In this document: positions 1-33,404 of the stretch, one piece after another
Layout of the letters: each line of letters opens with the position of its first letter
Numbering within the stretch: the stretch's first letter is position 1
NCBI GenBank assembly: GCA_963777045.1
Contig: CAVZPD010000009.1
Coordinates: forward strand, 371,009 to 435,008
Direction of reading: 5' to 3'
DNA: 64,000 nt
Source of the DNA: an uncultured Chloroflexia bacterium
GTDB lineage: Bacteria > Chloroflexota > Limnocylindria > QHBO01
The notes under the pieces: generated by a model
Told to the model about the DNA's origin: nothing
The model's database searches: none
Seen by the model: only the letters and a program-made list of their open reading frames with translations
Position numbers and translations under genes: made by a program

Positions 1-218
1 AGGAGGGCACCACCACCACCCCGTTCGACATGGTGATGCTGAACGACCTGGACCGATTCCACCTGGTGATCGACGTGATCGACCGCGTGCCCGGTCTTGC
101 CGATCGCGCCGGTCACGTGCGCCAGGCGATGGTCGACCGCCGGATCGCGGCTCGCGCCTACACGCGCGACCACGGCGAGGACGACCCGGCGATCCGCGAC
201 TGGACCTGGCCGGGCTAG
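1..218 (+). CDS. xfp: phosphoketolase (Xfp), C-terminal fragment; the gene starts upstream of the window
   Basis: Frame 3 is open from base 3. The translation ...GTTTTPFDMVMLNDLDRFHLVIDVIDRVP...EDDPAIRDWTWPG matches the conserved phosphoketolase C-terminus. It lies directly upstream of ackA, the usual xfp-ackA pairing. Confidence 0.6.
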   Translation, partial: EGTTTTPFDMVMLNDLDRFHLVIDVIDRVPGLADRAGHVRQAMVDRRIAARAYTRDHGEDDPAIRDWTWPG

Positions 219-222
219 GCCG

Positions 223-1314
223 ATGCGCGTCCTCGTCCTCAACGCCGGCTCCAGCTCGCTGAAGACGAGCCTGGTGGGAGAGCCGGGCGACGTGACCGTC
301 TCGCGCGACGAGCTGCAGCGTCCCGCGCAGAGCGGCTGGAGCGGCGCCCTCGCCGAGGCGCTGGGTGGTGGCGATCGGATCGACGCCATCGGCCACCGGG
401 TCGTGCATGGTGGCGTCGGACACGCCGGTCCCATGCTCATCTCCGACACGGTCGTCGACGAGCTGGATGAGCTGCGGGACCTCGCTCCGCTGCACAACGG
501 TCCGGCCCTGGAGGTGATCGCGGCGGCCCGCGAGGCGTTTCCGGACCTGCCACAGGTCGCGTGCTTCGACACCGCCTTCCACGCCACCCTGCCGCCGCCG
601 GAGGTCGTCTACCCGCTGCCGTACGAGTGGTACGAGCGGTGGGGGGTTCGACGCTTCGGGTTCCATGGCCTCTCCGTCGCCTGGTCGGTGGAGCGCGCCG
701 CGAAGCTGCTGGAACGCCCCATCGGCGAGCTGCGCCTGGTCGTGGCGCACCTCGGCAGCGGCTGCTCGGTCACCGCGGTGGACGGCGGCCGCTCGGTGGC
801 GACCTCCATGGGCATGACCCCGCTCGAGGGGCTGATGATGGCGACCCGCTCCGGTTCGGTGGACCCCGGCCTCCTGCTGGAGCTGCTGGACGACAGTCGC
901 CTGACGCTGGACGAGCTGCGCCGGGCGCTGCAACAGGAGTCGGGGCTCGTGGGCCTCTCCGGGATCAGCGCCGACCTGCGCGAGGTGCAGCGGGCGGCCG
1001 CCGCGGGCGAGGAGCGGGCGGCGCTTGCGATCGAGGTGTTCGTGCGGCGCGCCGCGGCCGGGATCGCCGCCGTCGCCGTCGCCCTGCCGGCCGTCGACGC
1101 CCTCGTCTTCACGGCGGGCATCGGCGAGCACGCCGGTGACGTGCGCGCTGCGATCTGCAGCAGGCTGGCCGTGCTGGGACTGCCCGCCGTCCTCAACCAC
1201 GGATCGGACGAGGACGAGATCCTCAGCCTCCCCGGCTCGCGGGTGCGGGTGCTGCGCGTCGAGGCGCGGGAGGACCTGGTCATCGGTCGAGAGGTGGCGC
1301 GCCTGCTCGACTGA
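223..1314 (+). CDS. ackA: acetate kinase
   Basis: ATG at 223 gives MRVLVLNAGSSSLKTSL..., the acetate kinase N-terminal motif. The ORF is full length; the 5' part of the 97..1314 track ORF is upstream junk. Confidence 0.85.
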   Translation: MRVLVLNAGSSSLKTSLVGEPGDVTVSRDELQRPAQSGWSGALAEALGGGDRIDAIGHRVVHGGVGHAGPMLISDTVVDELDELRDLAPLHNGPALEVIAAAREAFPDLPQVACFDTAFHATLPPPEVVYPLPYEWYERWGVRRFGFHGLSVAWSVERAAKLLERPIGELRLVVAHLGSGCSVTAVDGGRSVATSMGMTPLEGLMMATRSGSVDPGLLLELLDDSRLTLDELRRALQQESGLVGLSGISADLREVQRAAAAGEERAALAIEVFVRRAAAGIAAVAVALPAVDALVFTAGIGEHAGDVRAAICSRLAVLGLPAVLNHGSDEDEILSLPGSRVRVLRVEAREDLVIGREVARLLD

Positions 1315-1415
1315 GCAGGCCTACGGCCACGCGCGATCCTCCGGCACCCCAAGACCTGACGCTTGGCACTGGCGTCATCGCGGCAGCTGCTGTCCTCTAG
1401 CGTGAGGAACTAGCG

Positions 1416-1928
1416 ATGCATGGGGACCGTGTCGTGAAGGCATACGTGGTGTACGAATCGTTGTGGGGCAACACGCGGGCGATCGCGGAGGCCGTGGCCG
1501 AGGGTATCGGTCCGGGAGCGAAAGCCGTCGCGACCGATGGCGTCACGGCCGACGAGCTCGCGGCGGCGGATCTGCTCGTTGCCGGCGCTCCGGTCATCGC
1601 CTTCAGCCTGGCGAGCGACAAGGCGCGTAAGGACATCGCGCGCAGCGAAACGGCGGCGCCGAATCCGCCCGACGTGGAGCACCCGTCGATGCGGGCGTGG
1701 CTTGAGAAGTTGCCGCATGCCGGTGCCCAGGCGGCAGCCTTCGAGACGCGCATCTGGTGGACGCCTCGAGGCGCCACCGGCGACATCGAGAAGCGGCTGC
1801 GGGGCGCCGGATACCGAGTCGTTGCGAAGGCCGGCAAGTTCATGGTGGAGGGTAAGTACGGTCCGCTGCGCGACGGCGAGGTCGAGCGCGCGCGGGCCTG
1901 GGGAAGGACGCTGGTGGCGTCGGAGTAG
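1416..1928 (+). CDS. flavodoxin-like fold protein
   Basis: 170 aa ORF with the N-terminal strand KAYVVYESLWGNTRAIAEAVAEG typical of the flavodoxin / NAD(P)H-dependent FMN reductase fold. Confidence 0.55.
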   Translation: MHGDRVVKAYVVYESLWGNTRAIAEAVAEGIGPGAKAVATDGVTADELAAADLLVAGAPVIAFSLASDKARKDIARSETAAPNPPDVEHPSMRAWLEKLPHAGAQAAAFETRIWWTPRGATGDIEKRLRGAGYRVVAKAGKFMVEGKYGPLRDGEVERARAWGRTLVASE

Positions 1929-1967
1929 CCCACGACGACGGCACCGTGCCAGTCGCGCGAGCTCGGC

Positions 1968-2453
1968 TCAGCCGACCTCAGCCCGGGGCGCATAGCGGAC
2001 GCGCGCGAAGGGCCACGCAGTGGCCAGCCAGTCCCTGACCACCCGGTACAGGTCGGCATCTCGGTCGGCGTGGGCCGCGCTGACCCAGGACCGGACTTCG
2101 ACATCGGCTCCATCCGTGCCTGGCTCGTCCGGGGGATAGATGTACACGCAGCCGATGACCTTGCCCGCGTCGTCCAGGACGGTGTAGGTGAAGCCGGTGC
2201 GTGCCGCGAAGTCCGCGGCGTGCCGCTCCAGGTCGCCGCGGTTCTGCTCCAGGCTCATCGGCTGCGGCCAGTCGCGTCCCGCGAAGCCGGGCGTGGCGCG
2301 GATGTGGCCGATGCTCGAGGTCCAGGCCAGGTGATCGGCCTCGTTGTGCTCCGGCCCAAGCGGCACCAGGTGGAATCCATCGGCGTAGAGCTCGCGCGGC
2401 ACCTCGAATTGGTCGGGCACGAAGGGTGGGCGTCGTCGGCTGGCATCGGCCAT
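1968..2453 (-). CDS. hypothetical protein, possibly a GNAT-type acetyltransferase
   Basis: ORF 1968..2597; the likely start is the internal Met (MADASRRRPPFVPDQFEVP...). The FHLVPLGPEH...D.LAWTSS pattern resembles a GNAT N-terminus. This is a weak call. Confidence 0.35.
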   Translation of the reverse strand: MADASRRRPPFVPDQFEVPRELYADGFHLVPLGPEHNEADHLAWTSSIGHIRATPGFAGRDWPQPMSLEQNRGDLERHAADFAARTGFTYTVLDDAGKVIGCVYIYPPDEPGTDGADVEVRSWVSAAHADRDADLYRVVRDWLATAWPFARVRYAPRAEVG

Positions 2454-2716
2454 GCTACCGCGTCGCGCGGGCGAATCCGTCCGCGTTCCCCGGACGGCCC
2501 GCCCGCGACACAAGGCACGTCCCTGGATACGCGCACGCCGGCGGGGACTTCCGCTGCACGGGAGGCCACGCCGCGCGTGTCCGCGGGACCTTCCCACGGG
2601 GAAGGAGAAGCGGGCCGCCGCGGGGCGACGCGACGAGCGGCGGGCCAGATGTCACACCCGGCCGGCCGATCGGCCCGTCCGGCCGCGCCACTCGGCACTG
2701 ATGCGCATCCCCGCAT

Positions 2717-3088
2717 ATGTCCTATGCTCATGCCATGGAACCGATCTACGAGCTCCAGGCCGAGGTCCTCAAGACGCTCGCGCACCCGCGGCGCCTCGAG
2801 ATCGTCCATGAGCTTGCGCGCGGTCCCCGCACCGTCGGTCGCCTGGCCGATTCGCTGGGGCTGGCGCAGCCGAACGTTTCCCAGCACCTGGCGCTGATGC
2901 GTGCCAGCGGCGTGGTGGAGGCCGAACGAGACGGTCGCGAGATCCGCTACCGGCTCACCGACCCCGACATCATCGCCGCCTGCGGGCTGATGCGCCAGGC
3001 GCTGCAGCGGCGCCTGGCCCGGCTCGCCGCCCTTTCCCGGCGGGCTCCCGGCGCCCCCACCCCGGTCGCCAGCGGCGGCCGCCAATAG
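2717..3088 (+). CDS. ArsR/SmtB-family transcriptional regulator
   Basis: HTH motif LAHPRRLEIVHELARGPRTVGRLADSLGLAQPNVSQHLALMRASGVV. It has a single Cys, near the C-terminus. It leads the DsrE/TusA/SQR cluster. Confidence 0.75.
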   Translation: MSYAHAMEPIYELQAEVLKTLAHPRRLEIVHELARGPRTVGRLADSLGLAQPNVSQHLALMRASGVVEAERDGREIRYRLTDPDIIAACGLMRQALQRRLARLAALSRRAPGAPTPVASGGRQ

Positions 3089-3099
3089 GGAATCGAACC

Positions 3100-3512
3100 A
3101 TGGACCAGACCGTCTCACTCGTCCTCTTCTCCGGGACGGACGACAAGCTGCAGTCGGCGGCGGTGATGGCCGCCGGTGCGGCCGCCGTCGGAAAGCCGGT
3201 GCACATCTTCCTCCAGTACTGGGCGCTCGACGCCTTCCGCCGGATCGCATCAACAACGACCACGGGCTGTCAGCCGAGGCAGGCCCGGTCGGGCACGCTG
3301 CGGTCGAGGCGCTGCGCGCCGCCGGCCAGGAGCCGTGGTACGAGACGCTGCGACAGGCGAAGGAGCTCGGCGAGGTCGAGATCCAGGCCTGCTCGCTGTC
3401 AATGGACCTTCTCGAAATCAAGCAGGACGACCTTGATCCGCTGGTCGACGGCGTGGAGGGCGTTGCCGCCTTCTTGATGGCTGCCGGCGACGGGCAGGTC
3501 GTCTTCATCTGA
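3100..3512 (+). CDS. DsrE/DsrF-like sulfur relay protein; frameshift near 3245
   Basis: N-terminus MDQTVSLVLFSGTDDKLQSAAVMAAGAAAVGKPVHIFLQYWALDAF is in frame 1. The DsrE-like C-terminus ...WYETLRQAKELGEVEIQACSLSMDLLEIK...VVFI* continues in frame 3 to TGA 3510-3512. Confidence 0.6.
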
Positions 3513-3764
3513 CGACATGTACGCGGAGGCACGAACCGACATGACCATGTCCGCATTGCCCAGCGCGTCGACGCGCGAGGACTCTCCTGCCCGCTCCCGA
3601 TCGTTCGCACCGCCATCGCCATCAAGGCGCTCAAGGCGGGCGAGCTGATCGAGGTGCTGGCGACCGATCCCGGATCGACCAAGGACTTCACCGCATGGGC
3701 CAAGACCACCGGCCACGAGCTGGTCGAGCATCGGTCGACGACGGCGTCTTCCGGTTCGTCCTGA
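3513..3764 (+). CDS. TusA-like sulfurtransferase; start codon unresolved
   Basis: Frame 3 reads ...VDARGLSCPLPIVRTAIAIKALKAGELIEVLATDPGSTKDFTAWAKTTGHELVEH*, with the CPxP TusA motif. There is no in-frame ATG or GTG; a Met in frame 1 at 3517 or 3541 suggests an indel near the start. Confidence 0.5.
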   Translation, partial: RHVRGGTNRHDHVRIAQRVDARGLSCPLPIVRTAIAIKALKAGELIEVLATDPGSTKDFTAWAKTTGHELVEHRSTTASSGSS

Positions 3765-3872
3765 GCGCAAGTGAGGCACCCATACGACGACCATCACCAA
3801 GCCAGAAACCTACCTCCCACCCGAGCTGATGGACGGGCTGGACGACCCGACGCCTGTCGAGGAGCTTGAACC

Positions 3873-4367
3873 ATGGAAGAGGGCGCCAACAAGACCGGCG
3901 AGCTGCTGATCATCTGCGAGAGCGGTGACCTTGAGCGCACCTGGGCGACCACCATCCTCGCTTCCTCGGCCGCGGCGAGCGGCCAGAAGGTGAGCATCTT
4001 CTTCACCTTCTGGGGCTTCTTCCCGCTGGTCAAGCCGGGGATCCGGATCACCGGTGAAAACTGGATGCAGAAGATGCTGTCGTTCATGAATCGGCCTGGT
4101 ATCGACCACGCCAAGACCAGCAAGTTCAACTTTATGGGCATGGGGCCGTGGATGATGAAGAAGCTCGCCAAGCGCTACGGCGTGGCCGAGCCGCGCGAGC
4201 TGTTGGAGATGGCCCAGGCCCTTGGCGTCGCCCTGATCCCGTGCCAGATGAGCATGGACATGATGGGCTTCAAGCGCGAGGACCTGATCGACGGGCTCGA
4301 GGAGCCGGCCGGTGCGGCCACCGTGCTCCAGATGATTGCCGACGGCGCGACGCCGCTGTTCATCTGA
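3873..4367 (+). CDS. DsrE/DsrF-like (DsrE2-type) protein
   Basis: Intact 164 aa ORF of the DsrE/DsrF-like family, embedded in the sulfur-trafficking cluster. Confidence 0.65.
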   Translation: MEEGANKTGELLIICESGDLERTWATTILASSAAASGQKVSIFFTFWGFFPLVKPGIRITGENWMQKMLSFMNRPGIDHAKTSKFNFMGMGPWMMKKLAKRYGVAEPRELLEMAQALGVALIPCQMSMDMMGFKREDLIDGLEEPAGAATVLQMIADGATPLFI

Positions 4368-4392
4368 CGTGACTGAGAAGGAAGGAAGCGCC

Positions 4393-4638
4393 ATGAAGGT
4401 GCTCGAGGTACCGATCGACCGCACCATCGACGCTCGCGGCAGCTTTTGCCCCGGGCCGCTGATGGAGCTGATCCGCGCGATCCGCGAGGGTCAGGTCGGC
4501 GACATGATCGCCGTCTGGTCCAACGACTCGGGATCGCGCCTGGACATCCCGAAGTGGATCGAGAAGGCCGGGCATCGCCTGGTCGGCATCGAGACTCGCG
4601 ACGGCTATGACGAGATCATCGTCGAGAAGCTTCGCTAG
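4393..4638 (+). CDS. tusA: TusA-family sulfur carrier protein
   Basis: RBS GAAGGAAG precedes ATG 4393. MKVLEVPIDRTIDARGSFCPGPLMELIRAIREG is the TusA CPxP motif. Confidence 0.75.
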   Translation: MKVLEVPIDRTIDARGSFCPGPLMELIRAIREGQVGDMIAVWSNDSGSRLDIPKWIEKAGHRLVGIETRDGYDEIIVEKLR

Positions 4639-4663
4639 GGAATCAAGAAGGAGCGCAGCATCG

Positions 4664-5818
4664 ATGCAACGCATCGTGGTTCTCGGCGGGGGTGTCGGCG
4701 GCACCCTCGTCGCGAACCTCCTCGTCAGGAAACTGAAGTCCGAGATCGACCGCGGCGACGCGTCGGTGACTGTGGTGGACGAAAAGGGCGAGCACATCTA
4801 TCAGCCCGGCTACATGTACATCGCCATGGGGAACGAGAAGCCCGAGCGCCTGAAGAGGCCCGAGCGCTCGTTGCTCGACCGGCGGGTGCAGCTGGAGATC
4901 GGCCGGGCACAGAAGATCGACGTGGAGAAGCGCCAGGTCACCATCGAGGGGGACAGGACGCTCGACTACGACCAGCTCATCCTGGCTACCGGGTCACGGA
5001 TCGTGCCCGAGGAGATCGAGCACTTCGACACCGAGGCGCACCACTTCTACGGGCCTGCTGAGGCGCAGCGGTTACGTGACGCGCTCAACGCGTTCACCGG
5101 TGGCCGCATCGTGATCGGTATCGCGGGCATGCCCTACAAGTGCCCGCCCGCCCCGCTGGAGGTGGCCTTCCTGATCGAGGACGAGCTGCGGCAACGCAAG
5201 CTGCGCGATAAGACGGAGATGCACTACTGCAGCCCCATCGGCCGCGCCTTCACCATCGAGAGCGTGTCCGAGATGGTCACGCCAATCCTGGAGGAGAAGG
5301 GCATCGAGCTGCACACGTTCTTCAATGTCGAAACCATCGATCCGGAGAAGAAGACGATTGGCAGCCTGGAGGGCGAGGAGCTGCCGTACGACCTGCTGGT
5401 CCTGGTGCCGCCGCACAAGGGCGCGCAGATCGTGGTGGATGCCGGGTTGGCGCCGCCATCGGGCTGGCTTCCGACCGACCACCACACCCTGGAGGTCAAG
5501 GGCCATCCCGAGATCCATGCCCTGGGTGACGGCACCGACCTGCCGTTGTCGAAGGCCGGCTCGACGGCCCATTTCGAGGCGCCGGTGGTGGCGGAGCGCG
5601 TGTCGGCCGTGGTCAAGGGCGAGAAGCCGAGCGGGAAGCATGTCTCCTACGAGGGCAAGGTGATGTGCTTCTTCGAGGTCGGTGACGGCAAGGGCACGCT
5701 GCTGCAGTTCGACTACGAGCACCCGCCCAAGCCGCCGAAGCCGAATCGGTTCTGGCACCTGGGCAAAATCGTCTTCAACAAGACGTACTGGCACACCGTT
5801 CCAAGGGGACGCATCTAG
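4664..5818 (+). CDS. sqr: sulfide:quinone oxidoreductase-like FAD-dependent oxidoreductase
   Basis: ATG 4664 gives MQRIVVLGGGVGGTLVANLL, a Rossmann GxGxxG motif. The ~384 aa NAD/FAD disulfide oxidoreductase is of SQR type and adjacent to TusA/DsrE. Confidence 0.7.
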   Translation: MQRIVVLGGGVGGTLVANLLVRKLKSEIDRGDASVTVVDEKGEHIYQPGYMYIAMGNEKPERLKRPERSLLDRRVQLEIGRAQKIDVEKRQVTIEGDRTLDYDQLILATGSRIVPEEIEHFDTEAHHFYGPAEAQRLRDALNAFTGGRIVIGIAGMPYKCPPAPLEVAFLIEDELRQRKLRDKTEMHYCSPIGRAFTIESVSEMVTPILEEKGIELHTFFNVETIDPEKKTIGSLEGEELPYDLLVLVPPHKGAQIVVDAGLAPPSGWLPTDHHTLEVKGHPEIHALGDGTDLPLSKAGSTAHFEAPVVAERVSAVVKGEKPSGKHVSYEGKVMCFFEVGDGKGTLLQFDYEHPPKPPKPNRFWHLGKIVFNKTYWHTVPRGRI

Positions 5819-5942
5819 GACTCCCTGCTCGGCTTCCCCCTTGCGTGGGGGGCGGTACCCGGTGCGGTGCCGCCGCTTTCTGCGTTCCCGTCTCGTAGAT
5901 CGCGCTGCTGGCGCAGGAGGCCCGCTACGCTGCTGCCGCGAT

Positions 5943-6608
5943 CTATCGGGCTGCGGGAGCGTGAGCGCGCCGTCGGCGCACGTCGCGTGCCGGACCCCGA
6001 TAGATGCTCGAGACCGCGCAGAACCGGTGCAGGGGCGCCGACCGCGATAGATCGCGGTCAGGCGGTGGCGCCGCCAGCACCGCTTCGACCTCGGCCAGCT
6101 GATCCCGCGCGGCCAGCACCACCAGCAGGTGGTAGAGCAGGTCGGCCGCCTCACCGCGCAGCTCGTTATCGGTCCCGGCCAGGGCCGCCCCGGCCACCTC
6201 GCCGGCCTCCTCGTCACCTTCTCGGCTGGACGGCGAGGCCCGCCGGCGAGCAGCCGAGCGGTGTAGGAGTCCGCGGGATCGGCGACGGCGCTCCGCGATC
6301 GTCCGCTCCAGGTCATGCAGGCCGAAGCCCGCCGCGGGGGCGACATCATCGGTGAAGCAGGAACGCGATCCGGTGTGGCATGCGGGACCCGCAGGACGGA
6401 CCCGGTACAGGATGGCGTCGGCATCGCAATCGGCCGCCAGCTCGACCACGTGCATCACGTTCCCGCTCGTGGCGCCCTTGCGCCACAGCTCGTCCCGGGA
6501 TCGGGACCAGAAATGCGCCTCGCCGGTGCGCTCGGTGGCGGCGACGGCCTCGGCATTGGCCCAGGCCAGCATCAGCACCTCGCCGGAGTCGGCGTCCTGG
6601 ACGACCAC
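5943..6608 (-). CDS. hisIE: bifunctional HisI-HisE (phosphoribosyl-AMP cyclohydrolase / phosphoribosyl-ATP pyrophosphatase); frameshifted, N-terminus unresolved
   Basis: HisI core [20 protein letters not shown]...HTGSRSCF is followed by HisE motifs ([12 protein letters not shown]; [14 protein letters not shown] in another frame; [12 protein letters not shown]). An in-frame TGA (6645-6647) lies just upstream of the GTG called as start. Confidence 0.6.
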
Positions 6609-6689
6609 CGGCAGCAGGTCGGTCGCGAACGCCGGGCGGCGGGCTCACCCAAGCCACGCGGCCACCTCTCTCGGGCGTGGGCGCCGCAA

Positions 6690-7455
6690 CCAGCGGCCGA
6701 ACCGGCAGGCCGCGCTCGGCCAGGGCGGCCTTGAGCTCCGGGATGGTCACTAGTCGCCGATGCAGCAGCGAGGCCAGCAGGGCGGCGGAGGCGCCGCCGG
6801 CATCGAGTGCCGCCAGGATGTCATCCGCGCTCCCGGCACCGCCGCTCGCGATCACGGGCACCGGCACCGCGTCGCTGACCGCGCGCGTCAGCTCCAGGTC
6901 ATAGCCCGAGCGCGTCCCGTCGCGGTCGATGCTGGTCAGGAGCACTTCGCCCGCGCCGCGTTCGACCGCCTCGCGCGCCCAGGCCACCGCCTCGCGGCCG
7001 CTGTCGGCCGTGCCCGAGACGCCGCGCACCGACCAGCCGCTGCCGTCGGCCGCGCGGGCGGCGTCGATCGAGATGACCAGCGACTGCGAGCCGAGCCGGG
7101 CGGCTATCCGGTCGAGCAGGCCGGGGTCTCGCAGCGCGGCCGAGTTGACGGAGACCTTGTCGGCTCCCGCGTCCAGGAAGGCGGCGGCATCGGCCAGGGA
7201 GGCGACGCCGCCGCCCACCCCCAGCGGAACGTCCAGGGCCGTGGCCGCCCGCGAGATGAGGTCGAGCAGGGCCGGGCGTCTGTCCTGCGTGGCGCCGACG
7301 TCCAGGATCACGATCTCGTCCGCCCCCTCCTCGGCGTACCGCGTCGCGAGCTCCACCGCGTCGCCCGCGTCCTGGAGGTCGGCGAAGCGCGTGCCCTTCA
7401 CCACGCGTCCGTCGGTCACGTCCAGGCAGGCGATCAGCCGCTTACGCAGGCTCAC
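6690..7455 (-). CDS. hisF: imidazole glycerol phosphate synthase cyclase subunit
   Basis: MSLRKRLIACLDVTDGRVVKG...VTIPELKAALAERGLPVR (253 aa) is canonical HisF. The track ORF runs on to 6346 with no stop, so the true end (~6690) is approximate. Confidence 0.8.
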
Positions 7456-8184
7456 CGGCCACCCGGGCTGGACACTGCCGCGACCGCTTCGGCCGGGCCG
7501 ATGGATCCATTGAGGAGTGCCAGCCCGACGACCGCGCCGTCCAGGCCGATGCGCTGCAGCGCCAGCAGGTCATCCACCGAGCCGATGCCTCCCGCTCCGC
7601 CCAGCCAGGCCCGGGAGGCCTCGCGGAACGCGGCGAGCAGTCCCAGGTTCGGCCCCGCGAGGGTCCCGTCCCGATGCGTATCGGTGACGAGGAGGCCCGC
7701 GGCACCGTCCGCCACCAGGCGCGAGCCGATCTCCGGCGGGTCGCCACGGCCTCCCGCAGCCAGCCGTCGACGGCGAGCCGCCCGTCGCGCAGGTCCAGCG
7801 AGACGAGGATGCGGCCCGGCCAACGCGCGGCGCACGCGCGACGAAGCCGCGCCTCCAGCGCAGCGGTACCCAGGATCGCGAAGTCGACCCTGCATCCGCG
7901 AAGAGTGCGGCCACGGCCTCCACCGTGCGCAGGCCGCCGCCCGACTGGATGTGGATCGCAGGGGCCGCGCGCTCGCGCGACCTCGGCGATCCGCTGCCAG
8001 CTGCCGCGGTTCGCCCGCCCGCGCCCCTTCGAGGTCCACCAGGTGCAGCCGCCGTACCCGCCGCCGCCCACTGCCGGGCGAGGCCAGCCGGATCCGGTAC
8101 GCCCTCGATCACCCGCTGGTAGTCGCCCTGCTGCAGCCGGACGCTGCGCCCGCCGATCAGGTCGATCGCGGCGATCAGCTCCAC
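7452..8184 (-). CDS. hisA: 1-(5-phosphoribosyl)-5-[(5-phosphoribosylamino)methylideneamino]imidazole-4-carboxamide isomerase; multiple frameshifts
   Basis: N-terminus MELIAAIDLIGGRSVRLQQGDYQRV, a middle part (IQSGGGLRTVEAVAALF; RILVSLDLRDGRLAVDGW) and C-terminus (LLVTDTHRDGTLAGPNLGLL...) are spread over three frames. The stop overlaps the hisF start. Confidence 0.7.
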
Positions 8185-8800
8185 GCCACAGCCTCCGCCG
8201 GGGAGCGGTCGAGCATGCCGCCGGCCCAGGCGGCCAGCAGCGAACGCCCGACGCCGCCGCTCTTCTCGGGATGGAACTGGGTGCCGAGCACCGATCCGGA
8301 CCGGACCACCGACGGGAAGCGGAAACCGTCGACCTCCGTCCAGCCGGCGACGCCGCCCGGATCGGCGGGGTCCAGCCAGTAGCCGTGCACGAAGTAGGCG
8401 TCGAAGGTCCCTGCCGCCAGCTCAACACGATTCCAGCCGATGTGCGGCACGCGCATCGGTCCACCGACAGCCGCGGGTGGGAAACGGCGGCAGATGCCGG
8501 GGAGGAGCCCCAGGCCGGGCGCGTCGTCCTCCTCGGATGCATCGAGCAGCAGCTGTGCGCCCAGGCAGATGCCCAGGAAGGGGCGCCCCCGGCGACCCAC
8601 TCCCGCATCGGTTCAACCATGCCCTGGCGTGTGAGCGTCTCCATCGCCGACCCGGCCGCGCCCACGCCGGGCAGGACCAGCCGCTCCGCGTCCGCCAGCT
8701 CGGCCGGCCTGCGGGCCAGGCGAGCATCGGCCCCGACCGCGGTGAAGGCGCGCAGGACGGAACGCGTATTGCCGGCCCCGAAGTCGACGACCGCGATCAC
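8175..8800 (-). CDS. hisH: imidazole glycerol phosphate synthase glutamine amidotransferase subunit; one frameshift near 8590
   Basis: A GTG at 8800 overlaps the hisB stop (GTGA). VIAVVDFGAGNTRSVLRAF... then switches frame to ...RPFLGICLGAQLLL...GTQFHPEKSG. Confidence 0.7.
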
Positions 8801-9388
8801 CGCAGCGTTCCCTTGCTGCTGGGGCTCTCGCCGGCCAGGCGGGGATCCGGCTCCGCGGCCTGCCGCAGGGCACGTGCCAACGCCTTCATGGCTCCCTCCA
8901 CCAGGTGGTGCGAGCTGCGCGCCTTGCGCACCTCCAGGTGCACCGCGAACCGACCTTCGCGTGCCAGCGTCTCCACGAAGTGGGGCCAGAGCTCCAGCCA
9001 CACGTTGATGCCGGTCAGCGGATCCGGGCGCGGCTCGACGTCCGCGTAGCCGCGACCACCCAGGTCCAGCGCGCAGAGCGCCAGCGCCTCGTCCATCGGC
9101 AGGCGCACGTCGCCGTAGCGGCGAATACCGGTGCGCTCACCCAGCGCCTCGTCGAGCGCACGGCCCAGCACCAGCGCCACGTCCTCCACGGTGTGGTGCT
9201 CGTCCACGTGCAGGTCACCGGTCGCCCTGACCTCGAGGTCCAGCAGGCCATGGCGCGCCAGGAGGGTCAGCAGGTGGTCCAGGAAGCCGATGCCCGTCTC
9301 GACATCGGCGCTCCCGGCCGTCGAGGTCCAGCCTGACCCGGACCGATGTCTCAGCCGTCGTGCGCTCCGCCGTCCCGACGCGGCTCAT
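8797..9388 (-). CDS. hisB: imidazoleglycerol-phosphate dehydratase; one frameshift near 9290
   Basis: MSRVGTAERTTAETSVRVRLDLDGRE... changes frame to ...ADVETGIGFLDHLLTLLARHG...HHTVEDVALVLG...HHLVEGAMKALARAL*. The ATG overlaps the hisC stop. Confidence 0.75.
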
Positions 9389-10500
9389 GCCAGCAGCTCC
9401 CGCAGCGCATCGATCAGGCGCTGCGTCTGCTCCGGTCGCGGGCGTTGGCACGCAGCCAGCCCGCCATGGGTCCGGCGTCGTACTCGCGCACCAGCAGGCC
9501 GCGGCGAGCGAGCGCGTCGGCCAGGGCATGGGCATCGGGCGGACGGAAGGCAACGAAGTTGGTGACCGACGGGAGCGTCCGGCAGCCCAGCTCATCCAGC
9601 GCAGCCGCCAGGCGCCGCCGCTCCTCCACCAGCAGCCGCCGCCGCTCGTTGACGGCGGGTTCGTCGGCCAGCAGGCCCAGGGCGATCGCCTCGCTGGGCT
9701 CGGCCAGGGCCAGCGGCAGCCGCATCGCGTCGAAGCGGGCGGCGAGCGGCTCCGGCAGCACCAGGTAGCCGACGCGCGCCGCGGCGGCGCCGTACGCCTT
9801 GGACAGGGAGCGCAGCACGAGCACGTTCGGCAGCTCGTCCTGCAGCCGGATCGCCGAGCCTGCGTTCGGCTCCTCCCCGGTCGCGGCCTCGGCGAACTCG
9901 AGGTAGACCTCGTCCACCAGCAGCAGGGCCGGCAGCCCGTCGGCCAGCTGGCGGATCTCGTCGAGCGTGTAGCGGTCGCCGGTGGGATTGTTCGGCGTGC
10001 ACAGCCATACCAGGCGCACCGCCTCCCGCTCGGCGGCCTCGCGCAGCTCGGCCACGCTCTGCCGCTCTCCGGGATCGCGCCGGGGGACCTCCACCACCCG
10101 GGCGCCGGCCAGGCGCGACTCCACGAAGAACATGCCGAAGCCCGGGCTCGGGATCAGCGTCGCGTCGCCCTCGCCCAGCGTGGCGGTCGCCACCAGCCGG
10201 ATCAGCTCGTCGGCGCCGGCGCCCGGCAGGATCGGTCGCCGGGAACGCCCAGCTTGGCGGCGAGGGCTGCGCGCAGGCGGTGGTAGGCCATGTCCCCGTA
10301 CTCGGTCAGGTGCGAGACGTCGTAGGCGCGCAGCCCCTCGACGGCGCCGGCCAGCGGTCCGCCACCCAGCGTGTTCAGGTCGAAGCGCAGCACCTGTTCA
10401 CCGGCAGCCCCAGCGACGCAGCGACCTCTTCGTCCGACGGTTCGGAGGGGTAGGCATCCACCGGCGCCGGGCGGCGCAGCAGCTCCACCGGGTCGTCCAC
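9385..10500 (-). CDS. hisC: histidinol-phosphate aminotransferase; at least 3 frameshifts
   Basis: GTG 10500 ([17 protein letters not shown]...) is followed by VLRFDLNTLGGGPLAGAVEGLRAY, then PGFGMFFVESRLAG...LCTPNNPTGD...LRSLSKAYG, and a corrected C-terminus ...QRLIDALRELLA*. Confidence 0.7.
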
Positions 10501-11752
10501 GGCGTCTGCATCGCCGTCGCGCGCGCGGCCCGCAGCGTCACGGAGGCGGCGTGTGCCGGCAGCCCCTCGACCGCGGCGATGGCCTCGACCGTCGGTGCCA
10601 GGCCGCACGCCGGCCGGCGTCACGCGCTGGACCTCCAGCCAGCGTCCGAACGACTCGACGCCGACGCCCCCGTACGCCCGGGCCGAGCCGCCGGTCGGCA
10701 GCACGTGGTTCGTGCCGGTGGCGTAGTCGCCGGCAGCCACGGCCGACCACGGACCGATGAAGATCGCGCCGGCATTCCGCACCCGCTCGGCGAGCGTCTC
10801 CGCGTCGCGGCACTGCAGGGAGAGGTGCTCCGGGGCGATGGCATCCGCCGCCTCGAGGGCGCCACCCATGTCGTCCACCAGCACCACGCGACCCCATTCG
10901 CGCAACGTCGACAGCGCCCGCTCACCGGTCGCCAGTGGCATGGCCTGGGTGGGGATCGCGGACTCCACGGCATCGGCCAGGGGGCGTCATCGGTGACCAG
11001 GACGCCAGCGAGTCCGGCCCGTGCTCGGCCTGTGCCAGGAGGTCGGCCGCCACCAGCTCGGCATCCGCGGAGGCATCGGCCACCACCACGCACTCGGACG
11101 GACCGGCCGGCAGGTCGATCGCCGTGTCGGCCGAGACCAGCCGTTTGGCCGCGGTGACCCAGGCATTGCCCGCGCCGAAGATGCGGTCGACGCGCGGCAC
11201 GCTTCGGTGCCATAGGCCAGCGCGGCGATCGCCTGCGCTCCGCCGACGCGGAGCACGCGCGCCACGCCCACCAGGGACGCCGCGTACAGGACGGCCGGAT
11301 CCACGCTGCCATCGGCCGCGGGTGGCGTGGCGACGATGAGCTCGTCCACGCCCGCCAGCTGAGCGGGGATTCCCAGCATGAGCACCGAGCTCGGGTAGCG
11401 TGCCCGGCCGCCAGGCACATAGCCACCCGCGCGGCGGAATCGGGACCCAGCGGCGCCAGGCCGTCACGCCTGGCCGCGTCCGCACGCGCCGGTCGGCGGA
11501 GAGGAACGAACGCTGGTCGGCGTGGTAGCGGCGAACCGCGGCCGCGCTGTCGCGCAACGCCTCGCGGACCTCGGGTGCCACGGCCTCGGCGGCGGCCGGG
11601 AGCGCCGCCTCGGGGACGAAGAGCGCGTCCAGCTCCACGCCGTCCAGCTCACGGGTCAGCTCCCGGAGGGCGCGGTCGCCATCGGTCCGCACCCGGGCCA
11701 GGATGGGAGCGACATCCGCGTCGGGAGTGCGGCCCGCAGTCCGGCCAGCCAA
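10497..11752 (-). CDS. hisD: histidinol dehydrogenase; several frameshifts, 3' end approximate
   Basis: Pieces are [20 protein letters not shown]...RRYHADQ; [26 protein letters not shown]; [19 protein letters not shown]...IDLPAGPSE...[11 protein letters not shown]; and a C-terminus ...[28 protein letters not shown] found in a shifted frame. Confidence 0.7.
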
Positions 11753-11821
11753 TCGGTCCGGGATCGTCCGTCCAGCGCCGACCAGGTGACGCGCCGGAGG
11801 AGATCGGCTTGGAGACCGCCA

Positions 11822-12684
11822 TCAGCGCACCACCTTTTCGATGGGCACCACCAGGATGTCGCGCGCCCCGGCCGCCTTCAGCGCGGGGATCAGGCGCCAT
11901 AGCGTCGAGCGCTCCACCACCGAGTGCACCGCGATCATGGATGGGTCGGCCAGCGGCATGACCGTCGGCCCCGACAGGCCGGGGATCAGCGCGCGGATCC
12001 GATCCAGCGCCGACGCCGGGGCGTTCATCATCATGTACTCCTTGCCGCGCGCGTCGATGACGCTCGACAGCATCGCCACCAGCGGCTGCCAGCGCTCGTC
12101 CGGCTGCTCCGCGCGGGTCACCAGCACGGCCTGGGACTCGAGCAGGTTGGCGATCGGCCGCAGGCCGTTGAGGCGCATGGTGCTGCCGGTGGCCACCAGG
12201 TCCACCACGGCGTCGGCCACGCCCAGCTGCGGCGTGACCTCCACCGCGCCGCGCACCTCGATCACCTGGGCGTCGATGCCGCGCTCCTCGAAGTAGGCGC
12301 GCGTCAGGCGCGGGAAGGAGGTGGCGACCCGGCAGCCGTTCAGCCCTTCGGGCTCCTGGACCGATGCGGATCGCGGCACGGCCAACGTCAGGCTGCAGAC
12401 CCCGAAGCCCAGCTCCAGCACCGCGTTCAGCCCGGGGACCGCTCCTCCACCAGGTCGACGCCGCTGATCCCGGCATCCACCAGCCCGTCGGCCACGTACT
12501 CGGGCACGTCCTCGGCCCGGACGAAGAGCAGGTCCAGCTCGTAATTGCGGGCGCTGGCGGTGAGGCTGGCGGTCGAGACTTCCACCTCCAGGCCGGCATC
12601 GCGCAGCAGCTGCAGCGCCGGCTCGGCCAGGCGCCCCTTGTTGGGCAGTGCCAGGCGCAGGGCGTCACCGCCGTTGAGGGTCAC
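11822..12684 (-). CDS. hisG: ATP phosphoribosyltransferase (long form); one frameshift near 12430
   Basis: GTG 12684 gives VTLNGGDALRLALPNKGRLAEPALQLLRDAGL...DVPEYVADGLVDAGISGVDLVEE. A frame switch then leads to AVLELGFGVCSLTLAVP...GSTMRLNGL... plus the C-terminal regulatory domain. Confidence 0.75.
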
Positions 12685-12987
12685 TTCGCGCTGCCCCCTC
12701 CGCGAGGCGGCCCAGGAGCAGTTCGTAGCCGCCGCGACCGTATCGGCGCCACTGGTTGACGCGGCTGATGGTCGCGCTGGATGCGCCGGTGCGTTCGCTG
12801 ATCTCGTGGTAGGGGATCCCCTCCGCCAGGAGGCGCGCCACGTGCCAGCGCTGCCCGAACTCCTGGAGCTCGCGGATGGTGCACAGGTCGCGCAGGAAGC
12901 GGAGTGCCTCCTCGCTGTCGCGCAGCGCGGCGACGGCGGCGGCCAGCTCGGCCGTCTCGTGTTCATCCAGTCTTCGGGCTGATTCAT
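12665..12987 (-). CDS. YerC/YecD-family TrpR-related DNA-binding protein; frameshift near the start
   Basis: This gene is absent from the ORF track. ATG 12987 (MNQPE...) then changes frame to ...LDEHETAELAAAVAALRDSEEALRFLRDLCTIRELQEFGQRWHVARLLAEGIPYHEISERTGASSATISRVNQWRRYG*. This is the Trp_repressor-like YerC/YecD signature. Confidence 0.6.
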
Positions 12988-12991
12988 CGCT

Positions 12992-13898
12992 TTAGCACGC
13001 TAATAGGAGGGTGAAGCTTACGCATGCCGAGGGGGTGGCGTCAAGGGCGTTCCCGGCGCCGAGGCCGCGAAGGGCTGCCCGCGGCCTCAAGGGCCGGGTT
13101 GGCCCGCGCGGAGAGTCACCAGCGACGACAGGGCCGAGCGGGCCGACGCCGGCGCCTGCCGTCCGGCTGCATCCGCCACCGCTGCCGACCAGGAGCGAGC
13201 CCACGATCACGCCATCTGCAGCGGCGGGGAGCGCGGCGACGTGCTGGGGCCGAGATCCCGAATCCCGCTGCCACGGGCGCGCGACCGGCGGCAGCGCGCC
13301 GACGCGGGAGAGCAGCGCTGCCGCACCGCCGCCACGCTCTCGCGCGATCCGGTGACGCCGTAGCGTGGGATCACGTAGACGAAGCCCGTTGAGGCGCCGA
13401 TGATCGCCTCGACGCGCTCATCCGAGGTGTTCGGCGCGACCAGGAAAGTGAGCGCCAGCCCCGCCTCGGCAGCCGCGCGCTCGAACGACGGTTCCTCGCC
13501 GGCCGGCAGGTCCGGGACGATGAGGCCGTCCACGCCATCGGCGGCGAGTTCGGCGAGGATGCCGTCGCCGGCGACCCGCAGCGGATTGCGGTAGGTCATC
13601 AGCAGCAGCGGCTGCTCGTGGCTCGCGGCGCGAAGACGGTGCACCACCTCGCGGGCGGTATGCAATCCGGCACCGTTGCGGACCGCTGCGCGGCCAGCCT
13701 CTGCGATGACCGGCCCGTCGGCCACGGGGTCGCTGAAGGGCACGCCGATCTCCAGCAGGTCCGCTCCGCCGTCCAGGGCCGCCGCGGCGACGGCCGGCGA
13801 CTCGTCGGCCGTGCGGTGTCCGGCCAGCACGTAGGCAATGAAGGCCGCCCTGCCCTCCCCGGCCGCGCGCCGAAGGCCGCTCGGATGCGCCGGTCCCG

Positions 13899-24001: not shown

Positions 24002-25194
24002 GGCGCCTGCGCCTGCTGACCGCCGGTGAGTCGCACGGCCCGGCGCTGAGCGGCATCCTGGAGGGGCTGCCGGCCGGCCTGCGCGTCTCGACCGCGAAGG
24101 TGGACCTGGACCTGCGGCGGCGGCAGCACGGCTACGGGAGCGGCCGGCGCATGCAGATCGAGCGCGACCGGGTGACCTGGACCGCGGGGATCCGCTACGG
24201 GCGAACGCTGGGCTCGCCGGTCGGCTTCACGGTCGAGAACCGCGACTGGGTGAACTGGACCGATCGGATGGCGGTCGAGCCGATCCCCGCCGCACGGCGT
24301 CCGAAGCCGATCACCCGCGCCCGACCCGGCCACGTCGACCTCGCGGGAGCGATCAAGTACGACACCGATGACATCCGCGACGTCCTGGAGCGTGCCTCGG
24401 CGCGAGCGACCGCGGCGCGGACGGTCGCCGGCTCGCTGTCGCGGCAGCTGCTGGCCGCCTGCGGCGTCCGGATCTGGAGCTTCGTCGACCAGGTTGGGCC
24501 GATCCGCGCCTTCGCGGATACCGACGAGCCGATGCGCCGCATCCCGGACGGCTGGTTCGAGCGCGACCTGCGCGACCCGTCGCCGCTGCGCTGCCCCGAT
24601 CCCGAGGCGGAGCGCGGCGATGCTGGCCGAGATCGACGCCGTGCGCGACGCGGGCGACACCATCGGCGGCTCGTTCGTGGTCGTGGCGGAGGGCGTGCCG
24701 ATGGGCCTGGGATCGTCGTCGGAGTGGGACACGCGCCTGGACGGGCAGCTGGCCGGCGCGCTGATGGCGCATCCCGGCGGCAAAGGGCGGTGGAGATCGG
24801 GCTGGGCTTCGGCGTCGTCCCGCTGCGCGGGAGCCAGTCCACGACGTGGTCGACGGCGAGGCCGATGGTGGGCGCCGGCTCACGAACCATGCCGGCGGGA
24901 TCGAGGGCGGCATCAGCAACGGCGAGCCGATCGTGGCGCGCGTCGCCATGAAGCCGATCTCCACCCTGCGCACGCCCGCTGCCGAGCGTCGACATGGCCT
25001 CCGGCGAGGTTGGGCGCGCGCACATCGAGCGCTCCGACGTCACGATCCTGCCGCGCTCCGGCGTGGTCGGCGAGGCGATGGTGGCCCTGGTCCTGGCCGA
25101 TGCCCTCCTCACCTCGTTCGGGGGCGACGCGATGGGCGACCTGCTGGCCGCGGTCCGGCGCCGTCGTCGGCGCTCGCGGGGCCCGCGCGGATGA
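23998..25194 (+). CDS. aroC: chorismate synthase; about 5 frameshifts
   Basis: GTG 23998 ([28 protein letters not shown]) overlaps the aroA stop. Fragments are [33 protein letters not shown]; [16 protein letters not shown]; [29 protein letters not shown]; and [28 protein letters not shown], each in a different frame. Confidence 0.7.
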
Positions 25195-25961
25195 CCCCAC
25201 GCGTGGTGCTGCTCGGCAGCGGGATCGGCTACTCGGCATCGCCGGCCATGCACAACGCAGCGTTCGCGGTGCTCGGTCTCGACTGGCGCTACGAGCTGGC
25301 CGACGTCGCCGGCGGACGCGCTGCCGGAGATGGTGCGGCAGCTGCGCCGACGGTGACGCTGGCCGGAGCCAACGTGACGAAGCCGCACAAGGCGGCGGTC
25401 ATCCCGCTCCTCGACGCGGTCAGCGAGGCGGCCGAACGGGCGGGAGCGGTGAACACCATCGTCCGCTCCGCCGATGGCCGCCTGCTCGGCGACAACACCG
25501 ACCTGCCGGCGCTGGCCAGCGAGCTTGCGCGCCTCGGCCGCTTCGAGCGGGCCGTGGTGCTGGGCCGGGGTGGCGCCGCGCGCACGGCCGCCGCGGCGTT
25601 GGCGGACGCGGGCGCATCGGTCCGGATGGTTGGGCGCGACGGATGGGCGGAGCTCCCCGCGCTGCTGGAAGCCGCGGACCTGCTGGTGAACGCCACGCCC
25701 ATCGGCACCGCGGAGGACGTCTCGCCCGTCCCGGCGGAGCTGCACCGGCCCGGCCTGGCCGTGCTGGACCTCGTCTACCGACCGTCGCCCACCCGGCTCG
25801 TGCGCGAGGCGGCAGCCGCCGGTGCCGATGCGGTGACCGGCGCCGGCATGCTGCTGCGGCAGGCGGTTCGCAGCTTCGAGCTGTGGACCGAGCGCTCGGC
25901 CCCGTTCGAGGTCATGCGGCGGGCGCTCGCCGAGGAGCTGGGAGCCGCGGTCCATGCCTGA
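25191..25961 (+). CDS. aroE: shikimate dehydrogenase
   Basis: The ATG overlaps the aroC stop (ATGA). [36 protein letters not shown]...[12 protein letters not shown]...GDNTDLPAL.... Confidence 0.75.
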
Positions 25962-27542: not shown

Positions 27543-27546
27543 GAGC

Positions 27547-27979
27547 GTGCGCATCCTGCTGCTGAACGGCCCGAACCTGTCGACGCTGGGCCGCCGCCAG
27601 CCCGAGGTCTACGGCACCACCACGCTGCCGGAGATCGTCGAGGCCTGCCGCGCGCGCGCCCTGGAGCGCGGCGCGATGCTGGACGACCTGCAGTCGAACC
27701 ACGAGGGGGCGCTGATCGACCGCCTGGAGCAGCTCGACTACGACGCCGTCGTGATCAACCCCGGCGCCCTGTCGCACACCAGCTACGCGCTGCACGACGC
27801 GCTGCTTGCCTGCGATCGCCCGGCGGTCGAGGTGCACATCTCGCGACATCACGACCCGCGAGCCGTGGCGGCGGGTGAGCGTCACCGCGCCGGCAACGCG
27901 GCACCAGGTGGTGGGGAAGGGTTGGCGCGGCTACCTCGAGGCGGTCGACTGGCTGCTGGAGCATGCCGGCGACGCCTGA
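27547..27979 (+). CDS. aroQ: 3-dehydroquinate dehydratase, type II; single +1 insertion near 27845
   Basis: AGGAG plus GTG 27547 gives VRILLLNGPNLSTLGRRQPEVYGTTTL...AVEVHIS. After a 1-nt shift it continues DITTREPWRRVSVTAPATRHQVVGKGWRGYLEAVDWLLEHAGDA*, which matches the canonical type II DHQase C-terminus. Confidence 0.75.
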
Positions 27980-28047
27980 CCGCGCTGGACTGGCCCACCG
28001 CGTCCGAGCTTGCCGCCGCTGGAATCGCCTGTGGTGAGATTCCCCGG

Positions 28048-33353: not shown

Positions 33354-33356
33354 CTC

Positions 33357-33366: not shown

Positions 33367-33404
33367 ACAATTATGGATCAATCACAGCAGAGAGCGGGGA
33401 GACC

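Follow-up and report, generated by a model that had tools for sequence, protein, structure and literature searches.

In Methylacidiphilum fumariolicum SolV, a sulfide:quinone oxidoreductase (SQR) of type III, a homologue of TusA and a putative DsrE2 protein are encoded together in one operon, MFUM_v2_0219-0221, which is up-regulated in sulfide-adapted cells oxidising H2S to S0 (elemental sulfur) (PMC10205796). Repressor, DsrE-like, TusA-like and SQR parts are likewise combined against sulfide and sulfane-sulfur stress in the cstR-tauE-cstA-cstB-sqr genes of Staphylococcus aureus and the yrkD-yrkE-yrkF-...-sqr-pdo genes of Bacillus (PMC9918477). ArsR-type repressors can also sense sulfane sulfur through cysteine, and those of the SqrR/BigR type are defined by a Cys pair, with one residue in α2 and the other near the C-terminal end of α5, that forms an intraprotomer polysulfide bridge (PMC10451225, PMC10054925). 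Here we describe a cluster of six sulfur-related genes in a 64,000-nucleotide stretch of DNA (the window; contig CAVZPD010000009.1, positions 371,009 to 435,008) from an uncultured bacterium of the chloroflexotal class Limnocylindria. Members of this class are uncultured but abundant in soil and fresh water; our literature search found no description of this cluster in Chloroflexota. We read the cluster, with a probability of about 0.6, as an operon of six genes that regulates itself, is probably leaderless and serves to oxidise or detoxify sulfide in the cytoplasm.

The six genes, encoding an ArsR regulator, two DsrE proteins, two TusA proteins and an SQR-type flavoprotein, all lie on the plus strand and match profile hidden Markov models (Table 1), in agreement with an earlier sequence-only reading of this DNA. 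A scan of species-representative genomes returned 212 relatives of the SQR, of which the best 80 were used as loci. Nearly all of these are metagenome-assembled genomes (MAGs) of the Chloroflexota group ‘Candidatus Limnocylindria/Limnocylindrales’, and the closest, a Microflora Danica MAG contig hereafter called L001, encodes an SQR protein that is 90% identical. By tblastn against the 80 loci, the order ArsR, DsrE-A, TusA1, DsrE-B, TusA2, SQR recurs in nearly all of those with sufficient upstream DNA, and it is kept in approximately 60 species-level Limnocylindria genomes; this recurrence rules out that the six genes were juxtaposed by chance. Median intergenic gaps in the relatives are 6, 25, 28 and 8 nt, with 8 nt separating tusA2 from sqr, and no neighbouring gene family occurs in more than 17 of the 80 loci. 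The conserved order, short gaps and variable flanks together indicate that the six genes are a self-contained, vertically maintained module.

Table 1. Predicted features of the sulfur gene cluster and the single-base deletions within it, in window positions.
Feature	Position	Strand	Basis
Promoter and operator	2694..2728	+	52-locus upstream alignment on ArsR start
arsR, ArsR/SmtB-family repressor, 117 aa	2735..3088	+	Pfam HTH_5, NCBIfam ArsR/SmtB subfamily
dsrE-A, DsrE2B-like sulfur carrier, 137 aa after restoring one base	3100..3512	+	Pfam DrsE_2, PDB 2QS7
tusA1, TusA-family carrier, CPLP motif, frame broken by three single-base deletions	3517..3774	+	Pfam TusA
dsrE-B, DsrE2-like; core from ATG 3873 (164 aa), N-terminal extension before it	3782..4367	+	Pfam DrsE_2
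tusA2, TusA-family carrier, CPGP motif, intact	4393..4638	+	Pfam TusA
sqr, type III sulfide:quinone oxidoreductase, 384 aa	4664..5818	+	NCBIfam type III SQR model
Deletion in dsrE-A	~3238 (3238-3244)		
Deletions in tusA1	~3554, 3730, 3763		
Deletion of the G of the true dsrE-B ATG	~3783		
Deletion in the dsrE-B N-terminal extension	3869		

Variants of the module were also seen. Two CSP1-4-type Chloroflexota loci (L027, 6849-9107; L034, 2-2011) hold a four-gene form with ArsR, DsrE-A, TusA2 and SQR, and the missing TusA1 and DsrE-B may be an accessory pair. Near-identical six-gene modules occur in three contigs (L003, L012 and L076) binned as Zixibacteria, Steroidobacteraceae and Angelobacter; either these contigs were mis-binned or the module has spread laterally. 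In the window, G+C content falls from 72% to 64% over positions 3500-5500. A foreign origin of the dsrE-B, tusA2 and sqr half was considered on account of this dip and rejected, as G+C at third codon positions (GC3) is 0.84-0.92 there, as in the rest of the window; the dip affects only codon positions 1 and 2 and hence reflects protein composition rather than recent import.

The sqr product matches the NCBIfam type III SQR model at 2e-105 (353 bits, model positions 1-391 of 406), a score below the 525-bit cutoff, which is that of a selenoprotein subtype in what is the only SQR-type model of the library. Pfam matches are Pyr_redox_2 (4.3e-17) and FCSD_central (2.7e-6), and the top PDB matches are all SQR or flavocytochrome c sulfide dehydrogenase (FCSD), at 4e-33 to 1e-15, with type II, type I and type V SQR and FCSD matched much more weakly than the type III model. 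The NDH-2-like protein YjlD reaches only 1.6e-7 in the PDB search, far below the SQR and FCSD matches, so the product is an SQR and not an NDH-2, as had been proposed from the sequence. An N-terminal FAD-binding GxGxxG motif is present at residues 4-12 (VVLGGGVGG), as expected of a two-Rossmann Pyr_redox_2 fold. All 81 sequences compared keep Cys160 and Cys335, and the cysteines of the KCPPAP and VMCFFE segments align in the PDB alignment with the conserved cysteines of human SQOR (KCAGAP and TSCPLV), which we take to be Cys201 and Cys379, the redox-active pair. The canonical catalytic residues of type III SQR are Cys159 and Cys339 (PMC13047784). A C-terminal tail rich in aromatic and basic residues, FWHLGKIVFNKTYWHTVPRG, is conserved; in type III SQR the C-terminal region serves membrane binding. 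No signal peptide was found in the SQR, which would place its active site on the cytoplasmic side, and export signals are absent from the carriers too. The sequence thus identifies the product as a predicted type III SQR, for which sulfide oxidation is the most likely activity.

The carriers form two dissimilar pairs, DsrE-A and DsrE-B sharing 25-30% identity and TusA1 and TusA2 33-38%, so each pair consists of old paralogues and not of recent duplicates. Both DsrE proteins match Pfam DrsE_2, DsrE-A at 1.4e-17 after one frameshift correction and DsrE-B at 6.6e-41, and each has a single invariant cysteine, Cys98 in the motif ACSLSMD of DsrE-A and Cys124 in PCQMSMD of DsrE-B, which also has an invariant His79. 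These cysteines align with that of PDB 2QS7, which matches DsrE-A over its full length at 1.6e-23 and DsrE-B at 3.8e-17; 2QS7 is Sulfolobus solfataricus SSO1126, an orthologue of the DsrE2B prototype (PMC4175335). DsrE-B additionally matches 3PNX (2.3e-12), which it resembles in an internal insertion of approximately 25 residues. The sequence-only reading had likened the set to a DsrE3/TusA thiosulfate relay. That likeness did not hold: the DsrE3A structure 3MC3 gives 1.3e-5 with DsrE-B and no hit with DsrE-A, and the Cys-X7-Cys motif of DsrE3A is absent from both proteins, with their single conserved cysteine each. DsrE2A proteins have two strictly conserved cysteines, and the NCBIfam DsrE2 equivalog for that type, NF047629, scores DsrE-B at 75 bits and DsrE-A at 34 bits, short of its cutoff of 210. 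A single cysteine aligned with DsrE2B Cys99, with 2QS7 as the closest structure, is the mark of the DsrE2B subgroup, and DsrE-A and DsrE-B are accordingly predicted to be DsrE2B-type carriers and not DsrE3. DsrE4 is a separate group encoded beside SQR in Sulfolobales, with Mcup_1724 as its prototype (PMC4175335); linkage of dsrE genes to SQR is common to that group and the present cluster.

TusA1 and TusA2 match Pfam TusA at 3e-24 (85 bits) and 3.1e-20 (72 bits), well above the cutoff of 28.6. The motifs CPLP in TusA1 and CPGP in TusA2 are invariant in the relatives, and Cys19 and His61 of TusA2 are invariant in 77 sequences. Against the E. coli TusA equivalog, which has a cutoff of 78 bits, the two proteins score 47.5 and 38.8, making them family members but not orthologues of E. 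coli TusA. Several gene boundaries changed on comparison with relatives. The start of tusA1 was corrected to ATG 3517, and dsrE-A is intact as a single high-scoring segment pair in 68 relatives. For dsrE-B, the start first read at ATG 3873, behind a 105-nt spacer, gave way to a longer gene: at least 60 of 67 relatives have no stop in this frame up to an ATG located 8-11 nt past the tusA1 stop, and the extension encodes a variable, acidic, proline-rich N-terminal tail. The idea that the 105-nt ‘gap’ between tusA1 and dsrE-B holds a second operator or internal promoter was therefore rejected, since it is coding in relatives and contains no further copy of the palindrome described next.

Upstream regions of 52 loci, aligned on the conserved Met-(Asp/Glu)-x-Ile start of ArsR, share a fixed order of elements: GGCACT, a 7-2-7 inverted repeat ATGCGCA-NN-TGCGCAT, and a TAnnnT-like box. 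In 46 of the 52 loci the palindrome departs from the consensus by 0-2 mismatches, and in 48 it ends 17-18 nt upstream of the ATG. Its perfect form, with 14 specified bases, occurs in 22 loci, as a single copy at this site in each, and nowhere else in approximately 1 Mb of locus DNA. In the window, the GGCACT box lies at 2694-2699, the palindrome copy ATGCGCATCCCCGCAT (ATGCGCA-TC-CCCGCAT) at 2701-2716, with two mismatches to the family consensus, and a -10-like TATGCT at 2723-2728, 6 nt upstream of ATG 2735; the copy at 2701-2716 is the sole match with at most two mismatches in the 64 kb. No Shine-Dalgarno sequence precedes ATG 2735. The fixed spacing of palindrome, -10 box and ATG is consistent with a leaderless transcript and a repressor site that overlaps its promoter, and arsR is probably translated from a leaderless messenger RNA. 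This geometry moves the ArsR start from 2717, as first read, to ATG 2735 and gives a product of 117 residues, in agreement with the homologues, mostly called at 116-117 residues. From its conservation and position, we infer that the palindrome is bound by the ArsR repressor. Control by ArsR, also part of the sequence-only reading, is thus likely, with a conserved palindromic operator overlapping the promoter. Scans of 2400-6200 for a sigma-70 consensus found no promoter, and those for intrinsic terminators gave nothing above chance on the plus strand. The convergent sqr and hisIE genes are separated by a region with a GC-rich hairpin of 8 bp and, after it, CGCTTTCTGCGTT (5852-5873). This may serve as a terminator in both directions, but the region's folding is no better than that of shuffled sequence (z = -0.74).

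The regulator matches Pfam HTH_5 (6.5e-14) and the NCBIfam ArsR/SmtB subfamily (1.3e-24). Numbered from Met 2735, its invariant and chemically interesting side chains in 53 orthologues are His25, His51 and Cys83, His51 lying within the family-wide SQHL recognition helix. Cys83 is the only cysteine of the protein and is invariant in all 53 orthologues, in line with the earlier observation of a single cysteine in place of the SqrR/BigR pair. An AlphaFold2 model (predicted local distance difference test, pLDDT, 88.5) has helices at 3-15, 18-28, 34-41, 45-57 and 77-103, which puts His25 in α2 (18-28) and Cys83 in the second turn of the long α5 (77-103). In a PDB profile search His25 aligns with the α2 cysteine of BigR, which we take to be Cys42, and of HlyU, and the C-terminal partner cysteine, expected near residue 103, is absent. 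With the α2 cysteine replaced and the α5 partner missing, an intraprotomer α2-α5 polysulfide bridge is impossible.

Subfamily models agree with this separation: the regulator scores 67.8 bits with the NCBIfam BigR equivalog (cutoff 155) and 57.8 bits with CmtR (cutoff 150). The metal-ligand sets of the family, namely the α3N CxC, the α5 DxH-x10-HxxE/H and the α4C Cys pair of CmtR, are all absent; α3 reads PRTVGRLAD, α5 DPDIIAACGLMRQALQRRL, without His, and α4 VSQHLALMRASGVV, without Cys. Among PDB entries the best match is Rv0081 (2.6e-21), followed by M. smegmatis SmtB and then BigR. Subfamily assignment by a fold search with the ArsR model was tried and dropped, as its matches were generic to the ArsR family and did not tell the subfamilies apart, and our literature search found nothing on the NCBIfam ‘TsoR’ model. 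By sequence, the regulator belongs neither to the SqrR/BigR group nor to the metal sensors. The sequence-only reading had been staked on the oxidoreductase not clustering with NDH-2 and the regulator not clustering with metal sensors, and on both counts it stands; the regulator does not group with SqrR/BigR either, its best match being of the Rv0081 type.

A search of 1.84 billion cluster representatives returned 1036 proteins at E <= 1e-10, and the best 150 (36-71% identity) were inspected. The α5 cysteine, in the context Y-x-L-x-D-P-x-(I/V)-x-x-A-C, is kept in more than 100 of approximately 146 representatives (about 70%), down to 36% identity. His25 is kept in the closer representatives only, the others having D, Y, N, E or S. 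Gene neighbourhoods were read for nine representatives with usable contigs; several distant representatives lay on contigs too short to inform and are not counted. One adjoins DrsE_2 and TusA genes (P0148), another DrsE_2 (P0139), a third DrsE_2 and an AhpC/TSA-type protein (P0171), a fourth a single-domain rhodanese (P0164) and a fifth DUF302 and OsmC (P0170), while the neighbours of the other four are unrelated or unidentifiable. DrsE_2, TusA or rhodanese genes thus adjoin 4 of the 9, and OsmC or AhpC-type genes 2 of the 9. In this small sample of nine, the α5-Cys clade is linked with genes for sulfur transfer and thiol peroxidases, including in members that lack the conserved His25.

The position of Cys83 also bears on how it might act. 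It aligns with Tyr111 of SmtB and Met91 of CzrA. The α5 metal ligands are D104/H106 and H117′/E120′ in SmtB and D84/H86 and H97′/H100′ in CzrA, and they bracket the two-fold axis at residues 111-112 and 91-92, respectively. Cys83 would therefore lie beside the axis, and the two Cys83 side chains of a dimer likely face each other across the α5-α5′ interface.

We propose that an ArsR dimer binds ATGCGCA-NN-TGCGCAT and blocks RNA polymerase. As sulfide or sulfane sulfur rises, Cys83 would be modified, most plausibly by persulfidation or by an inter-protomer Cys83-Sn-Cys83′ bridge, and the repressor would leave the DNA. The membrane-associated (monotopic) type III SQR, its active site facing the cytoplasm, would then oxidise H2S at Cys160/Cys335 and pass the electrons to quinone. 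TusA2, whose gene lies directly upstream of sqr, would take the SQR-bound sulfane sulfur as a cysteine persulfide and deliver it to TusA1 and the DsrE2-like trimers, so that the carriers keep reactive sulfane sulfur protein-bound, limiting free polysulfide, until it reaches a final sink that would be encoded elsewhere, outside the module and its conserved surroundings. We infer this transfer, from SQR to TusA2 to the DsrE2-like proteins and TusA1 to a sink, from the analogy with the SolV and Firmicute clusters and from the lack of export signals on the SQR and carriers. A doubtful extension is that a widespread group of one-cysteine ArsR sensors of sulfane sulfur or redox state exists, related to the Rv0081 cluster, and that this repressor is the first of them to be recognised in a clear functional setting; it would be switched by a symmetric Cys83-Sn-Cys83′ bridge or by double persulfidation across the α5 dimer axis. 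In the same extension, free-standing TusA and DsrE2B-type proteins are direct acceptors of the sulfane sulfur of type III SQR. If true, this would give DsrE2B its first biochemical role, and the switch would differ from the intraprotomer α2-α5 bridge of SqrR/BigR.

Several points weigh against the proposal. For the regulator, Rv0081 has Leu at the position of Cys83 and no known ligand; homologues without the α5 cysteine carry L, I, V or F, as for a buried packing or interface residue; the dimer geometry at Cys83 derives from the alignment with SmtB and CzrA; and both mismatches of the window operator fall in one half-site. For the carriers, the only DsrE2B to have been assayed, that of Metallosphaera cuprina, showed no reaction with any sulfur compound offered and no binding to TusA or DsrE3A (PMC4175335). 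Up-regulation of the SQR-TusA-DsrE2 operon in SolV was only about 1.7-fold (PMC10205796). Our literature search found no case of an SQR passing sulfur directly to a TusA or DsrE2 protein that stands alone, and no downstream sulfur sink was found in the window or in the flanks of the 80 relatives.

In a serious, though not a probable, alternative, Cys83 senses no sulfur and is a structural residue of the α5 interface; the repressor would be ligand-free or otherwise controlled, like Rv0081, or would respond to another signal or protein partner, with the rest of the operon working as proposed above. Rv0081 is the best match in both sequence and structure, the ArsR cluster to which it belongs is largely uncharacterised, and some ArsR proteins may have no inducer site (PMC10054925). 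The hydrophobic residues of the Cys-less homologues and the absence of the defining SqrR/BigR pair point the same way. Set against this are the invariance of the cysteine in the 53 orthologues and its retention, down to 36% identity, by about 70% of the representatives despite a fold that clearly tolerates hydrophobic alternatives, and the repeated proximity of Cys-keeping regulators to DrsE_2, TusA, rhodanese, OsmC or AhpC genes. The operon poses the question whether a one-cysteine ArsR repressor can sense sulfane sulfur.

The destination of the sulfur could also differ from the sulfide oxidation or detoxification that we favour. It is improbable, on balance, that the carriers serve assimilation, passing SQR sulfane sulfur through TusA and DsrE to cofactor and tRNA thiolation or to cysteine synthesis. 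No conserved copy of persulfide dioxygenase, rhodanese, TauE, sHdr or sulfite exporter genes was found in the flanks of the 80 relatives, nor any in the 64-kb window, and the absence of persulfide dioxygenase and sulfite exporter from the operon and its conserved flanks is what assimilation would lead one to expect, as is the position of the operon among amino-acid biosynthesis genes in the window. The flanks are not conserved in relatives, however, which makes the biosynthetic neighbourhood incidental; the module encodes no biosynthetic sulfur acceptor, and its link to a respiratory SQR and a dedicated repressor matches known sulfide-stress operons. One metallo-β-lactamase (MBL)-fold domain in the window (28309-28902, plus strand) was considered as a persulfide dioxygenase and set aside, because it reads SHPHFYG where we would expect the metal-binding motif, presumably HxHxDH.

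The window is collinear with L001 over 1-13812, and L001 served as the reference for deletions and for the ratio of nonsynonymous to synonymous substitution rates (dN/dS). Within the coding sequence of the cluster, the only length differences from L001 are the six single-base deletions in the window (Table 1). When a single base is put back at all six positions, the proteins are uninterrupted and collinear with those of L001, with no stop codons and no larger lesions. The broken genes have dN/dS values of 0.10 (dsrE-A), 0.18 (tusA1) and 0.08 (dsrE-B), and the intact ones 0.10, 0.21 and 0.14. Single-base deletions relative to L001 are also scattered through the adjacent histidine operon (6000-13300). 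The six frameshifts are almost certainly assembly errors and not gene decay, given the same class of deletion in the his operon, the clean reconstruction and the equal dN/dS of broken and intact genes, and the apparent gene defects in the cluster should not be read as biology. The sequence-only reading had rightly assigned the frameshift and start problems of dsrE-A and tusA1 to the artefact class seen in the rest of the window; there are six deletions and not two, and it missed those in dsrE-B. That the module is instead a decaying pseudogene array, with six real frameshifts, is very improbable: all six deletions do fall within 630 bp (3238-3869), leaving arsR, the dsrE-B core, tusA2 and sqr free of any, but deletions of the same class run through the essential his operon nearby, no nonsense codons or larger lesions remain once they are corrected, the broken genes (0.08-0.18) are as constrained as the intact ones, and the contig has other signs of assembly trouble.

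Deletions of this class also break up or join open reading frames (ORFs) in other parts of the window, some of which seem to combine unrelated enzymes: one links chorismate synthase and shikimate dehydrogenase, another dehydroquinase and an MBL-fold protein, and a third a GCN5-related N-acetyltransferase (GNAT), an aminotransferase and ornithine carbamoyltransferase. Regions with such fusions or indels lie at 24765-25961, 27496-28902 and 58489-61194, and the whole contig seems to carry indel errors. Positions 1-2250 (acetate kinase, a flavodoxin-like gene and the start of a GNAT gene) are 100% identical to L001 in DNA, and from 2300 to 13812 the two remain collinear (L001 3375-17150 for the whole comparison) with identity falling abruptly to 75-92%, a pattern suggesting that the assembly is chimeric or mixes strains, or that a transfer took place very recently. 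In 250-nt bins, the sulfur operon (2751-5750) is 84-94% identical to L001 and the adjacent his genes (6001-11750) 76-87%; stronger constraint on the operon, or exchange of the module between related lineages, could account for the difference.

Least probable of all is a thiosulfonate (thiosulfate or tetrathionate) relay of the DsrE3A-TusA type of M. cuprina, which shares the dsrE-tusA pairing (PMC4175335) but needs the Cys-X7-Cys that both single-cysteine proteins lack, and which is at odds with the far better match to 2QS7 than to 3MC3, with the absence of linked sHdr or lipoamide dehydrogenase genes from the window and the flanks of 80 loci, and with SQR as the linked enzyme.

Elsewhere in the window, transfer RNA and Rfam scans found nothing. 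Two minus-strand frames are open from stop to stop, 626 codons at 38086-39966 and 215 codons at 52069-52716, with gene-like GC3 of 0.83 and 0.80 and no Pfam match at E <= 0.001. An ORF at 56712-58043 (plus strand) has HTH_32 and HTH_29 domains, a combination that we take to be associated with IS630-like transposases, and is a possible mobile element inside the amino-acid biosynthesis region. A second ArsR-like regulator (HTH_20; 32748-33377, minus strand) lies beside a dienelactone hydrolase and major facilitator superfamily and EamA transporters (32748-36127).

A strictly conserved, repressor-controlled SQR operon would mean that Limnocylindria routinely meet and oxidise sulfide, a point that bears on the cryptic cycling of sulfur in oxic soils. 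Because the module is compact, comprising a single enzyme and repressor, four small carriers and a defined operator, it should be easy to reconstitute; once reconstituted, it could show what DsrE2B-type proteins do and whether SQR hands sulfur directly to protein carriers.

Among known regulators, those of the SqrR/BigR/SoxR/sHdrR/HlyU group (cluster 4 of the ArsR sequence similarity network, SSN) also have the ArsR fold and are encoded beside sulfur-oxidation and sulfurtransferase genes. The position of their α2 cysteine is a family-specific invariant here as well, but as His25, and in place of their C-terminal α5 cysteine the present regulator has Cys83, approximately 20 residues earlier in the helix. 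Rv0081 of Mycobacterium tuberculosis (PDB 6JMI; ArsR SSN cluster 3) is about 41% identical, with a TM-score of 0.74-0.85, and shares the N-terminal EP(I/L)Y..L.AE..K(T)LAHP motif and the long α5, whereas it has Glu at position 25 and Leu at 83, and controls hypoxia-related genes, not sulfur genes (PMC10054925). The DsrE2B proteins of Sulfolobales (Mcup_0682; SSO1126, 2QS7) belong to the same fold family as DsrE-A and DsrE-B, with a single aligned cysteine and an adjoining tusA. Their genes lie in sHdr/DsrE3A clusters and not with SQR as here, and DsrE-B differs from them in its internal insertion of approximately 25 residues and its acidic N-terminal tail.

The Firmicute cst and yrk clusters use a sulfane-sulfur-sensing repressor of the CsoR family (CstR/YrkD) where the present operon has ArsR, and an SQR that is presumably type II; they also include a rhodanese, a persulfide dioxygenase and TauE, none of which is found in the Limnocylindria operon. 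Of the known systems, SolV's type III SQR-TusA-DsrE2 operon comes closest, with the likeness drawn from its published description. It belongs to a different phylum and has no reported ArsR repressor, sqr comes first there and last here, and it has one carrier pair where the Limnocylindria operon has two. What this locus adds to the SolV-type system is a second carrier pair, a defined leaderless promoter and operator, and a one-cysteine ArsR of an uncharacterised type.

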